64,000 nt of DNA, taken from the NCBI GenBank assembly GCA_045593005.1, contig JAZNVV010000038.1, forward strand, positions 1,652 through 65,651, in the 5' to 3' direction. The translations under genes and the position numbers were made by a program. The notes beneath the pieces are model-generated. The model was not told where the DNA came from. It saw only the letters and a program-made list of their open reading frames with translations, and made no database searches. Shown here piece by piece: positions 6,668 to 48,557 of this stretch; the stretch's first letter is position 1; each line of letters starts with the position of its first letter. Source of the stretch: Christensenellaceae bacterium (GTDB lineage: Bacteria; Bacillota; Clostridia; Christensenellales; Borkfalkiaceae).

Positions 6668-7547
6668 ATAAATTAGTTAAAATGGAAATTACCATCATTA
6701 AAACGCTGAATACAACGCCTACCCAAGCGCCCTTGTAAAAGTTTATGCAGGTAAACTTAACGCCTTGATTAAACTTTTTACCAAGCATCACTACTACTAT
6801 TGCGCCGATAAATACCACAAGCCCGATTATTGTCGTAACAATATTAAACGGATTGAAGTTAACGTACATGCACGTGATAATTAAAAAGTTATTTAAAAAA
6901 TGCATCAAAACGGCAGGCAAAATTGAACCCGTTCTTATAGCGATAAGAGTAAGGGCAAAACCCCAAGCAAACTGATAAACAATTTGCGCAGGATTTGCGT
7001 GGAATAACGCAAAAGTAATGCCTATAAAAAAGGAAATTTTAAGGTCAGTCTTGCCATCTGTAACACCAGCCTCTGCTACACAGAAATTAACAAAAGTGTA
7101 TAAAACGACGCCTCTAAACAAAATTTCTTCACCAACAGCAGGGGCTATCGCCGTACCGATTACATACTTAACGTAGTCGCCAAACCCGTCCATAGTAATA
7201 TTTTGAACGGTAATTGCACCAGCTTTAACAAGTTCGTTTCCGATAACGATATTTACGTAGCCAAAGCCAAGCATTAACCCTATTGACATTACTATAGCAA
7301 TAATTAAATACTTAACGCTAAACTTTTTTACCTTTATACCTTCTGTGAAAAATATCTGCTTTTCTTTAAGGTAAAAAGTAGACGCAAGTATAAATACGAT
7401 AGGTTGTATAAGACTTAAAATCATATCAACCGTCGATTGACTTTTAAGGTTTAAGCCAGAATAAATCATTGTGAAAAAAGCGCCTAAAAGTATTACGATT
7501 GAATAAAAAGAACCAAACTTTTTTTGATGATATAACGAAACTTCCAT
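6660..7547 (-). CDS. CPBP family intramembrane glutamic endopeptidase (CAAX protease-like)
   Basis: Multi-TM protein with EEILFRG, FALFH and HFLNN motifs. Start moved to the ATG at 7547, which follows a GGAG SD; the ORF track begins at 7601. Confidence 0.75.
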   Translation of the reverse strand: MEVSLYHQKKFGSFYSIVILLGAFFTMIYSGLNLKSQSTVDMILSLIQPIVFILASTFYLKEKQIFFTEGIKVKKFSVKYLIIAIVMSIGLMLGFGYVNIVIGNELVKAGAITVQNITMDGFGDYVKYVIGTAIAPAVGEEILFRGVVLYTFVNFCVAEAGVTDGKTDLKISFFIGITFALFHANPAQIVYQFAWGFALTLIAIRTGSILPAVLMHFLNNFLIITCMYVNFNPFNIVTTIIGLVVFIGAIVVVMLGKKFNQGVKFTCINFYKGAWVGVVFSVLMMVISILTNLYA

Positions 7548-41857: not shown

Positions 41858-41931
41858 GCAGGTGTAATTTAATGGTAAAATGGCTGCTTCCCAAGCAGCA
41901 TTCGAGGGTTCGATTCCCTTCACCTGCTCCA
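41858..41931 (+). tRNA. tRNA-Gly (anticodon CCC), CCA encoded
   Basis: Hand-folded cloverleaf. Acceptor GCAGGTG/CACCTGC, anticodon loop TTCCCAA, T-loop TTCGATT. 74 nt. Confidence 0.9.
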
Positions 41932-41932
41932 C

Positions 41933-42015
41933 GTGGATATGGCGAAATTGGCAGACGCGTAGGTCTCAGACTCCTATGGGCAACCTTGCAGGTTCAAGTC
42001 CTGTTATCCACACCA
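41933..42015 (+). tRNA. tRNA-Leu (anticodon CAG), type II with long variable arm, CCA encoded
   Basis: Acceptor GTGGATA/TATCCAC, D-loop AAATTGGCAGA, anticodon loop CTCAGAC (one U-U at the base of the stem), T-loop TTCAAGT. 83 nt. Confidence 0.8.
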
Positions 42016-45600: not shown

Positions 45601-46971
<1,371 letters not shown>

Positions 46972-47056
46972 TTACTAATTAATTATATCACTATTTTTTT
47001 TCTATGAAAAGAATTTGAAAATACTTTTTTAAATTTTTTTAAATTAAATTAAAAAT

Positions 47057-47079
47057 GGACGGCAATCCGTCCGTTTTTT
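47057..47079. terminator. GC-rich hairpin with T-runs on both strands, at the gdhA-proximal edge of the repeat array
   Basis: ggacgg-caat-ccgtcc. The plus strand continues gtttttt and the minus strand continues attttt. Confidence 0.65.
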
Positions 47080-47082
47080 ATA

Positions 47083-47463
47083 AAGTTTATATCATAACGT
47101 TAAACGATTTAGAAACGAGCAGAACAAGGCTCGTGAGTTAAAACAGATGAGATAGAACGTCTATTCATCAAAGTTGTTTTAACGAAACAGCGAACGCCGT
47201 TATGCGAAGTTTATATCATAACGTTAAACGATTTAGAAACGAGTGTGAGTAGGCTCGACAAGTTGTGGGATGAGTTAGACCGTCTGGTCAACGAAGTTGT
47301 TTTAACGAAACAGCAAACGCCGTTATGCGAAGTTTATATCACAACGTTAAACGATTTAGAAACGAGCAAAACAAGGCTCGTGAGTTAAAACAGATGAGAT
47401 AGAACGTCTGTTCATCGAAGTTGTTTTAACGAAACAGCAAACGCCGTTATGCGAAGTTTATAA
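47083..47463. repeat. Tandem array of 3 full copies (47083-47206, 47207-47329, 47330-47453) plus a decayed fourth start of a 123-124 nt non-coding unit
   Basis: By direct alignment, copies 1 and 3 differ at 5 positions. Copy 2 shares the first 37 nt and last 36 nt but has a diverged central 50 nt. Each unit carries inverted repeats. Confidence 0.9.
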
Positions 47464-47468
47464 ATCGT

Positions 47469-48557
47469 TTAAAAACAGTGTTGTAAATCAACCAGTATAG
47501 CAAACCCTATTAGTAAAATAAAACCAACGGTGTGAATAATAGCTTCTATCTTTCTGTTAACTGGTTTGCCACGAACCCACTCTATGGTAGTAAAAATGAC
47601 TTTTGAGCCATCTAGCGCAGGAATAGGCAATAGATTGAATACGGCAAGATTGACACCGATAAGTGCCGTTATTTGCAATAGGTATGAAAGCCCATACATT
47701 TGAACGCCTTGCGCCGTTGTTGTGATTGTCGTAACAGTTCCACCCATTGCAGTTAACCCTAACTTACCCGTTAGTAATTGACATAAAACGGTGAATATAG
47801 TTCCACCTAATTTAAATGTATATTCGAAAGTTCTACCGACTGACTCAAAAAAGCCAAACCTTACCGTTACGCCTTGCATAGCAGGTACGCCAAGCTTGCG
47901 TAAAGTCTGTTTTGTAGACTCAATACTTTCTATTTTGTCATCATTTAACGATACCGTTAATGCCTTTTTTTGACCATCACGCATTACAACTACTTCCACG
48001 GTGTCGCCTGCATCCTTGTCGTCAATAACAGCCATAACGTCGGTCAATAGGTAAATATTTCTACCGTCAATGGACACTAAAACGTCGTTTTCTTCAAACG
48101 GGGCAGACAGTTGCATTAATTCGCCACCATCTGGCTGGTAGGACATAACTTTATAAGTAGGGCTACCGTAAAAGCCTATAAACATAGCGGCAAAAACTAT
48201 AGCCGTTAAAAAATTCATAGTAGCGCCGGCAATTAAAACTAATATGCGTTGCCACGGTTTTTTTGAATTGAAATCACCTTCGGAAACAGCATCAGTTTCT
48301 TCACCGGCAAAAGCGCAATAACCACCGAGTGGAATAAGCCTTACTGCGAAAAGTTCACCGTCTTTTTTTTGACGTTTATATATAGCAGGGCCAAATCCTA
48401 TCGAAAATTCGTTTATTTTAAATTTGAAAATTTTGCCGACGATATAGTGGCCAAATTCGTGCACCGTAATCATTATAAGCAAAACAAGTAATGCTATTAA
48501 AATATACAGCACGTACGACATAACACCTTTAACGCCGTTTAATAATAAAAAGTTCAT
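47469..48557 (-). CDS. rseP: RIP metalloprotease RseP (site-2 protease, M50)
   Basis: 362 aa. HEFGHY zinc motif, PDZ region and LPIPALDGS motif. Confidence 0.93.
   Translation of the reverse strand: MNFLLLNGVKGVMSYVLYILIALLVLLIMITVHEFGHYIVGKIFKFKINEFSIGFGPAIYKRQKKDGELFAVRLIPLGGYCAFAGEETDAVSEGDFNSKKPWQRILVLIAGATMNFLTAIVFAAMFIGFYGSPTYKVMSYQPDGGELMQLSAPFEENDVLVSIDGRNIYLLTDVMAVIDDKDAGDTVEVVVMRDGQKKALTVSLNDDKIESIESTKQTLRKLGVPAMQGVTVRFGFFESVGRTFEYTFKLGGTIFTVLCQLLTGKLGLTAMGGTVTTITTTAQGVQMYGLSYLLQITALIGVNLAVFNLLPIPALDGSKVIFTTIEWVRGKPVNRKIEAIIHTVGFILLIGFAILVDLQHCF

Follow-up and report, generated by a model that had tools for sequence, protein, structure and literature searches.

The 64-kb stretch of a Christensenellaceae bacterium genome analyzed here (contig JAZNVV010000038.1, hereafter the window) carries a tandem array of three hairpin-forming units between rseP and gdhA. 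This array probably represents one member, triplicated in place, of a new dispersed family of palindromic repeats, of the same kind as MITEs (miniature inverted-repeat transposable elements), REPIN, ERIC, and BOX. The family is previously uncatalogued, and its host range is a clade of uncultured, low-GC Clostridia. Repeats of this kind are already known in bacteria; what distinguishes the element from them is its fixed orientation and the presence of a stop codon within its outer helix.

The element is ~125 to 130 nt long and forms a single long rod made of helices P1-P2-P3. Fold statistics were obtained over 19 copies from two alignments, A3 (MAFFT) and A4 (model-based), and a covariance model, R1, was built from 17 units. 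In A4, 85.6% of cells held standard pairs, and changes on both sides were seen in 30 of 37 pairs. The covariation score was 0.451, compared with 0.146 in shuffles, and none of 500 shuffles reached it. Slid controls on A4 were 26 to 49% paired, and A3 gave the same picture. Minimum free energy (MFE) folds of single copies reproduced the rod, with z-scores of about -3 to -8. An initial annotation, made from the sequence alone, had called the array rich in hairpins and had proposed testing an alignment for covariation. The rod confirms the first point, and the compensation found lies mostly in helices other than those that had been drawn.

P1, of ~11 bp, closes the element, and it covaries between copies: it is formed by TAAACGATTTA/TAAATCGTTTA in the window, TTAAAGGCTTA/TAAGCCTTTAA at locus L020, and TGAGCGATTA/TAATCGCTCA at L028. 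The stop codon takes part in this covariation, as the L028 helix TGAGCGATTA/TAATCGCTCA contains a TGA, with the P1 partner changed to match, where other copies have TAA. In P2, of 7 bp, one strand comes from near the 5' end of the element, and the 3' strand is what the initial annotation had taken as the loop and 3' arm of a cgagc/gctcg hairpin. That hairpin did not survive comparison: all five of its pairs lack compensatory change (RNAalifold, A3), and it overlaps P2, which covaries strongly. The sequence of P2 varies freely, its changes being fully compensated (GCATAAC/GTtTTGC, GCACACC/GGTGTGC, GCTAGCC/GGCTAGC, GCGTGGC/GCCACGC, and GCAATAC/GTcTTGC). Copies of the L020 type have a common P3 and differing, fully compensated P2 helices, and the P2 helices of the two copies at L015 (5083-5213 and 6757-6887) are identical except that the arms have traded places, GCAATAC/GTCTTGC in one and GTCTTGC/GCAATAC in the other. 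The arm-exchanged P2 keeps the same internal mismatch, and the remainder of the element is unchanged in orientation.

P3 is a long hairpin whose outer part covaries, as seen in GTTAAAACA/TGTTTTAAC, GATAAAATC/GATTTTATC, CTTACG/CGTAAG, and CCC..AAA/TTT..GGG. Its inner hairpin carries a conserved bulged T. For this second hairpin, the family supports the register GATGAAC-AGAC-GTTCtATC over the one first proposed, although unit 1 of the array can also adopt the latter. Between the helices lie asymmetric internal loops with conserved sequences, CGTTWACTGTTTCG and TCACGAGCC, which are kept even in relatives whose rseP is only 65% identical to that of the window.

Coordinates here follow the numbering of the 64-kb window, and element sequences are read on the rseP-sense strand, which is the window minus strand. 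Tandem Repeats Finder placed the array at 47083-47462, with a period of 124, 3.1 copies, 83% matches, and a score of 590. The unit lengths were 124, 123, and 124 nt, in agreement with the three-unit arrangement described at the outset. The pattern of differences was also exactly as described: units 1 and 3 differ at five positions, whereas unit 2 matches unit 1 at every one of the first 37 nt, differs from it at one of the last 36 nt, and has a diverged core of 50 nt. Two 22- to 24-mers derived from the units occur three times each in the window, all within the array, with 0.00 occurrences expected from shuffles. With covariance-model matches added, the whole array (47083-47472, minus strand) consists of three head-to-tail elements and an 18-nt leftover. 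Unit 3, the rseP-proximal one (47342-47471, minus strand), is intact, with P1, P2, and P3 all formed (138.4 bits, E value of 4e-30) and an MFE fold that is the rod (z of -5.83). In unit 1, the terminator-proximal one (47095-47220, minus strand; 108.4 bits; fold z of -4.37), P2 and P3 are intact and the 5' strand of P1 is replaced by junction sequence. Unit 2 (47219-47350, minus strand; 79.8 bits) is taken up below.

The individual parts can be located in the array, all on the minus strand. The 5' strand of P1, TAAACGATTTA, spans 47461-47471 and begins with the three bases of the rseP stop codon (47469-47471). Its 3' strand in unit 3, TAAATCGTTTA, lies at 47348-47358 and recurs at 47225-47235 and 47101-47111. 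The P2 5' arm GCATAAC is at 47446-47452, 47322-47328, and 47199-47205, and is met by GTTTTGC (47366-47372) in unit 3 and GTTCTGC (47119-47125) in unit 1. P3 of unit 3 occupies 47384-47430, with outer arms GTTAAAACA (47422-47430) and TGTTTTAAC (47384-47392) and the inner hairpin GATGAAC-AGAC-GTTCtATC. A conserved, mostly unpaired block of the 5' internal loop, CTGTTTCG, made up of invariant alignment columns, is found at 47430-47437, 47306-47313, and 47183-47190. In the alignment, the conserved block of the 3' internal loop, TCACGAGCC, is found at 47375-47383 and 47128-47136, and its counterpart in unit 2 is GTCGAGCC (47252-47259). The stretch at 47454-47463 had been read as the decayed start of a fourth unit. 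In fact, it belongs to the 5' end proper of the element next to rseP, which runs to 47471 and includes the stop codon. A leftover start of a fourth unit does exist, at 47083-47100 (minus strand); these 18 nt, ACGTTATGA followed by TATAAACTT, repeat the junction, and TATAAACTT is also present inside every unit.

Each junction holds a 9-nt insert, ACGTTRTGA (47092-47100, 47216-47224, and 47339-47347), which contains CGTTATG. This heptamer can pair without mismatch to the P2 5' arm of the next unit (CATAACG), which it matches better than does the P2 3' arm belonging to that unit. In internal units, it could compete with P2. A hairpin of CGTTATG with CATAACG had been proposed as a regular part of each junction; the insert was seen only in this array, to which the hairpin is peculiar.

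Unit 2 is a recombinant of two element variants, with mismatched helix arms, which accounts for its identical flanks and diverged core. Its 5' part is identical to that of units 1 and 3, and its 3' part comes from another variant. The inner hairpin, GTTGACC-AGAC-GGTCtAAC, is the variant found at L015, and the 3' arms CCCACAAC and CTCACAC match partners that are absent from unit 2, so that CTCACAC (47243-47249) occupies the P2 3' position as a nonmatching segment. In its match to the covariance model, nonstandard pairs run throughout P2 and outer P3 (P3a), and its fold is not better than that of shuffled sequence (z of -0.67). The array itself may have grown from the rseP copy to three units by unequal recombination at the short direct repeat TATAAACTT, which would give the 124-nt period, with one unit later turned into the mismatched recombinant. 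Other arrays of the "n plus a fraction" form were seen at L008 and L032. A 32-nt internal fragment of the element, CATAACTTCGTTACTGTTTCGCCTTACGACTT, follows a complete element at L008 (7216-7250) and L010 (2038-2072) and does not begin at the element's end; partial units after complete ones were also present at L025, L029, and L032.

Outside the window, homologues of rseP were located and their contigs fetched, and further loci were obtained by a metagenome motif scan and R1. Scanning with a motif conserved in rseP-linked copies gave ten further real loci, mostly from one metagenome and in other gene contexts. The element follows rseP at L007, L008 to L010, L013, L015, and L020. Where rseP is 93% identical to that of the window (L007), the contig ends 72 nt into the first unit. 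At 79 to 80% identity (L008, L009, and L010), there is one unit plus the 32-nt internal fragment and then the terminator, and at 68% (L013, where the downstream gene is pfkB, not gdhA) and 65% (L015) there is one unit right after the stop codon and then the terminator. At L011 and L012, with an rseP of 78% identity, the element is absent and the spacer is 40 nt.

The same element is present in related uncultured Clostridia, singly or in tandem, and is not always behind rseP. The copies described next at L015 and L032 and the one at L028 were found with R1. It follows gdhA at L015 (a second copy, L015b) and L032 (two tandem copies directly after the gene), era at L021 and L026, purH at L023, a glnA-like gene at L028, and a 44-codon open reading frame (ORF) at L025, as identified by ORF and Pfam analysis. 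purH at L023 is followed by purD, which places that element inside a pur operon, and downstream neighbors elsewhere include rpsP and a DAHP synthase gene. There are thus at least six different upstream genes, with no common function among them, and at least 8 occupied gene contexts. Given this range of upstream genes and the lack of an element at the rseP sites of L011, L032, and L030, the suggested tie to rseP does not hold. The gdhA sites of the window and L008 are empty as well.

It is also important to point out how regular the placement is. In all 8 contexts in which it could be determined, the element is co-oriented with the upstream gene, and in 7 of the 8 it starts 0 to 4 nt from the stop codon and precedes an intrinsic terminator, with the stop codon inside the outer helix in most of those 7. 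The exception, L015b, lies 45 nt after the gdhA stop codon, beyond a copy of the terminator. Copies were more alike inside one genome than when orthologous positions were compared across genomes, both for the two L015 copies, which have one P3 in common, and for the L020-type set. At L007, an outer arm of P3 is already different, although the flanks are conserved and rseP is 93% identical.

Taken together, the gain and loss of sites and the exchange of segments between copies are the behavior of a non-autonomous mobile or recombining repeat, and we suggest that the element is such a palindromic repeat. The short stretch from stop codon to terminator would be a "safe" one in which it persists, with P1 acting as a terminal inverted repeat, usually bounded by TTAA. 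It would be passively transcribed in the 3' untranslated region (UTR) of the upstream gene, here on the minus strand, and any effect on the cell would most likely come from its being a stable hairpin in the 3' UTR, which could shield the 3' end of the mRNA or offer a nuclease target; it may incidentally make the upstream message more stable or earmark it for processing. Much of this agrees with what is expected of a MITE: the element is noncoding and below 300 bp (125 to 130 nt, with one variant of 273 nt and no conserved frame), it ends in inverted repeats of ~11 bp (P1), and it is dispersed, with presence and absence between relatives.

We found no described family to which it belongs. Rfam 15, searched over the array region on both strands with E values of up to 10, gave no match on the element, in line with the initial annotation, which had recognized no riboswitch or ribozyme family. 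At eight related loci, searched with E values of up to 1 and including window-type and L020-type copies, there were only chance-level matches on terminators and flanks. A known RNA family was rejected on these permissive searches. Phage, plasmid, and viral collections held no match to the element, and an origin from such sources was set aside on that account. An exact 19-mer from the hairpin region, compared with species-representative genomes, had five single chance matches, all in unrelated phyla, and literature searches for a described family returned nothing relevant. Other candidates also failed. A CRISPR array does not fit, given that units 1 and 3 have nearly identical cores, not unique spacers, and that the whole unit also occurs singly elsewhere. 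Loop cores resembling hammerhead or hairpin ribozymes, considered by eye, did not fit the consensus and had no Rfam support. A link to nitrogen metabolism, raised by the gdhA and glnA neighbors, was dropped because the hosts also include era, purH, rseP, and more.

Several observations weigh against a purely mobile repeat. No transposase or other mobilizing enzyme was found in the window or the fetched loci. No unpaired termini flanked an ORF at any of these places, and a transposase carrying the element's termini was rejected as a candidate. Copy density is modest, as R1 found no further copies in the other ~63 kb of the window or in 21 kb each of L030, L035, and L037; there were likewise none in 45 kb of ribosomal-protein operons around secY, from the genome of L015 and an NCBI metagenome-assembled genome. 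The TTAA at both ends of most copies is palindromic and hence inseparable from an extension of P1, and it is missing in L028a and L015b. Covariation of P1 between copies is not predicted by transposase recognition alone, and more generally, compensatory change in all three helices, conserved asymmetric loops, and strict orientation exceed what a transposase needs of its inverted repeats. These features point to selection on a folded single strand, either RNA or single-stranded DNA (ssDNA). The pair statistics, finally, do not favor the strand that is transcribed: cells of the G-U type numbered 9 to 14 on the sense strand and 41 to 49 on the antisense strand (where they are A-C on the sense strand), and the RNAalifold consensus was -25.8 kcal/mol with 35 pairs for sense but -35.2 kcal/mol with 41 pairs for antisense.

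The question of strand deserves a closer look, since the signals conflict, as had been noticed at the outset. The sense strand is certainly transcribed, because the element lies between stop codon and terminator at all sites but L015b and, at L023, inside the pur operon; no antisense promoter was apparent. The U-G pairs that had been cited in favor of the plus strand come largely from the chimerism of unit 2, in which A-rich arms face arms that differ by transitions, so that what is A-C on one strand is G-U on its complement. Nevertheless, the family statistics do lean weakly the same way. With the degenerate copy excluded, positions with G-U-type cells numbered 8 on the sense strand and 14 on the antisense strand. 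One antisense position showed the series A-U (11), G-U (4), and G-C (1), and another showed G-U (14) and G-C (2). Fold z-scores, which correct for composition, were -6.3 (sense) and -8.0 (antisense) for L020, -3.2 and -6.2 for L013, and -4.7 and -5.9 for L015a, whereas the order was reversed in the window (-5.8 and -4.8 for unit 3; -4.4 and -3.5 for unit 1). On the sense strand, G is scarce (17%, against 25% C). The plus strand of the array is G-rich, a composition opposite to the GC skew of the plus strand, which is -0.04 to -0.14 along the whole window; a ribosomal operon lies on the minus strand. These statistics lean weakly toward the plus strand and, as weakly, toward selection on something other than mRNA-sense RNA alone; either RNA or ssDNA could be what is selected.

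One alternative, to which we assign a low probability, is that the element is a cis-acting 3'-UTR RNA on the sense (minus) strand. A terminating ribosome would melt the outer helix that contains the stop codon, and decay or processing of the mRNA, or ribosome rescue, could thereby become coupled to translation termination. Another conceivable role is the binding of a protein by the loops CGTTWACTGTTTCG and TCACGAGCC. Strong covariation, the constant co-orientation with the upstream gene, the position against the stop codon and ahead of the terminator (with L015b the exception), the change of P1 in concert with TGA or TAA, and the preservation of the loops in relatives with a diverged rseP are all what such an element would show. 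However, sense-strand G-U pairs are rare (~2% of cells) and are outnumbered by A-C mismatches, and a G-poor strand with pyrimidine-rich loops is unusual for a structured RNA. In addition, the host genes lack a common function, close relatives have no element at orthologous sites, and a copy resembles others of its own genome more than it does its orthologues.

Alternatively, and with somewhat less likelihood still, the element could be an ssDNA substrate for recombination or transposition, with the window plus ("bottom") strand as the folded, active strand, as in attC sites or the ends used by HUH systems (IS200/IS605 and RAYT). The better antisense folds of L020, L013, L015, and the consensus, the two antisense pair series, and the conserved bulged base of the inner hairpin are consistent with this, and the place of the element right after ORFs in a fixed orientation recalls attC sites. 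By inspection, however, the ends lack the RYYYAAC...GTTRRRY signature of attC, and no integrase or HUH gene was seen in the loci examined, where integrases were not searched for. Further, the hosts are core housekeeping genes and not cassettes, the plus strand is the leading-strand template in the window (judged by its negative GC skew throughout and by the ribosomal operon on the minus strand) and not the strand expected to be exposed in replication, and the window copies fold slightly better on the sense strand.

What these two alternatives would have in common is an orientation-locked device that embeds the host stop codon, whether as a 3'-UTR module that reads termination to set the fate of the mRNA or as a bottom-strand recombination site that moves to gene ends. 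We hold such a device to be a minority possibility. If it were true, the compensated P2 helices (including the arm swap at L015), the conserved loops, and the duplicated terminator at L015 would be functional features and not drift.

The initial annotation had also raised tandem small-RNA genes on the minus strand, with a promoter (TGATATAAA) and weak terminators for every unit, which now appears very improbable. An extended -10-like motif is indeed present at two internal junctions, and U-rich tracts follow the cgagc hairpin. But the motif is not at every junction, as had been stated, being missing from the first unit and from single-copy relatives, which have GGCTTATAWAC at this place as part of P1/P1b. 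Since TGATATAAA itself lies inside P1/P1b, the covarying outer helix would be beyond reach of any transcript that begins downstream of the motif. A promoter scan gave no site inside the array, and the putative terminator hairpin (cgagc/gctcg) shows no covariation and clashes with P2.

The array had been judged noncoding, and six-frame translation of the window and 17 family members agrees, with stops in all frames and no frame open across the units or the family on either strand. Descent from a repeat that once coded for protein, or a group of small ORFs, suggested by the only ORF in the array (47 aa, 47245-47388, in unit 2, whose 123 nt equal 41 codons and are open on the plus strand) and by a 41-codon sense-strand frame through the L020-type copies, is hardly credible: there are no start codons, stops and a length change of 1 nt are found in units 1 and 3, neither frame is common to the family, so that the unit 2 ORF is accidental, and P2 varies while its pairing is kept, which indicates a constraint on nucleic acid, not on protein.

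We compared the proposed repeat with known systems, with which it has its general nature in common but no sequence or defining signature. ERIC (IRU) elements are enterobacterial imperfect palindromes of 127 bp that occur in both orientations. They resemble the element in length, in forming one long imperfect hairpin, in their transcribed intergenic location, in the compensatory changes that keep the fold, and in copy number and sites that vary between relatives. However, there is no sequence similarity, the phylum is another, and ERIC does not systematically abut or include a stop codon, as the element does. The REPIN hairpin is thought to be a replicating unit that is recognized as ssDNA. REPIN and REP-BIME share with the element dispersed extragenic hairpin units, a mosaic makeup, and within-genome homogeneity, but the element has no 5' GTAG-type REP pair, its conserved loops are asymmetric, its arms are not palindromic REP units, and no RAYT gene was seen beside it in the loci examined.

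MIRU of mycobacteria are 40 to 100 bp long and contain small ORFs, not long covarying hairpins. Like the element, they form tandem intergenic copies in operons, keep a fixed orientation to transcription, and overlap a flanking stop codon with their ends, an overlap also found here; unlike them, the element has no conserved frame. BOX, RUP, and SPRITE of Streptococcus pneumoniae are likewise small, noncoding Firmicute repeats with predicted stable folds that are cotranscribed with their neighbors, and BOX is also modular. Their sequences are unrelated, and none is locked to stop codons, as the element is. RUP makes TA duplications and has a known IS630 partner. Correia elements (CREE) of Neisseria and bcr1 of the Bacillus cereus group make defined duplications (TA and TTTAT), and Correia elements are found in either orientation. 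Both are MITE-like, 100 to 155 bp long with terminal inverted repeats, and their hairpin RNAs can affect mRNA processing, but they have no sequence relation to the element. attC sites are imperfect palindromes of 57 to 141 nt in which structure is conserved over sequence, and it is the strand opposite the ORF that folds. The element is like them in lying directly after an ORF in fixed orientation and in having extrahelical bases. It differs in that the RYYYAAC/GTTRRRY core is not at its ends, which are TTAAAGGCTTA...TAAGCCTTTAA with a TCTAAC-like motif only on the 3' side, and in that it flanks housekeeping genes in normal operons.

Recognizing the repeat family avoids annotating the array as small-RNA genes, and R1 can be used to annotate elements in metagenome-assembled genomes. 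The family also offers a clean case for the old question of whether bacterial palindromes are selected as RNA, selected as ssDNA, or merely tolerated, because it combines very strong covariation, fixed orientation, and contact with the stop codon, all of which can be tested with existing genomes and metatranscriptomes of this gut/rumen-type clade. The repeat further explains breaks in assembly. In two other samples, contigs end at the two edges of the array (L006, the whole contig, and L007:1640-1712), as expected if the repeat breaks short-read assemblies; these contigs carry an identical gdhA and a 93%-identical rseP.

As for the neighborhood in the window, cdsA, dxr, rseP, and gdhA are all on the minus strand according to the ORF list, and the array therefore lies between the rseP stop codon and the operon terminator, within the rseP 3' UTR as initially described. 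On the transcribed strand, the order is the stop codon of rseP (site-2 protease; 47469-48557, from the ORF list and a homologue search), the array, the intrinsic terminator of the rseP operon directly after it (47047-47079, minus strand; stem 47072-47057, tail ATTTTTAATT), a promoter-like site of gdhA's own (47010-46982), and gdhA (45601-46947, minus strand). The only gathering-level Rfam 15 matches in the whole window are two adjacent plus-strand tRNA genes at 41858-42012.

Some further observations concern single loci. At L015, a direct duplication of ~34 to 40 nt of the gdhA terminator (ATAAAAATGCAAGGTGAAAGCCTTGCATTTTTTT; 6728-6757 and 6981-7010) flanks the inserted element and a partial second element, while at the orthologous gdhA sites of L008 and the window the terminator is single and the element is absent. 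This duplication exceeds any ordinary target-site duplication in length, and we offer no explanation for it. At L023, a 273-nt variant (1815-2087) has the termini of the 125-nt element and a longer, different interior. Its hairpin module GGTGGAGCGTCACGCTCC is also found at L028 (283-300), which suggests that the elements are modular, or mosaic. Lastly, a separate tandem repeat with a period of 34 and 3.0 copies (AAAGATAATGAAATAGTGTATACTTACGCTCATT) was seen at L019 (204-305), directly after an element and upstream of a DAHP synthase gene.

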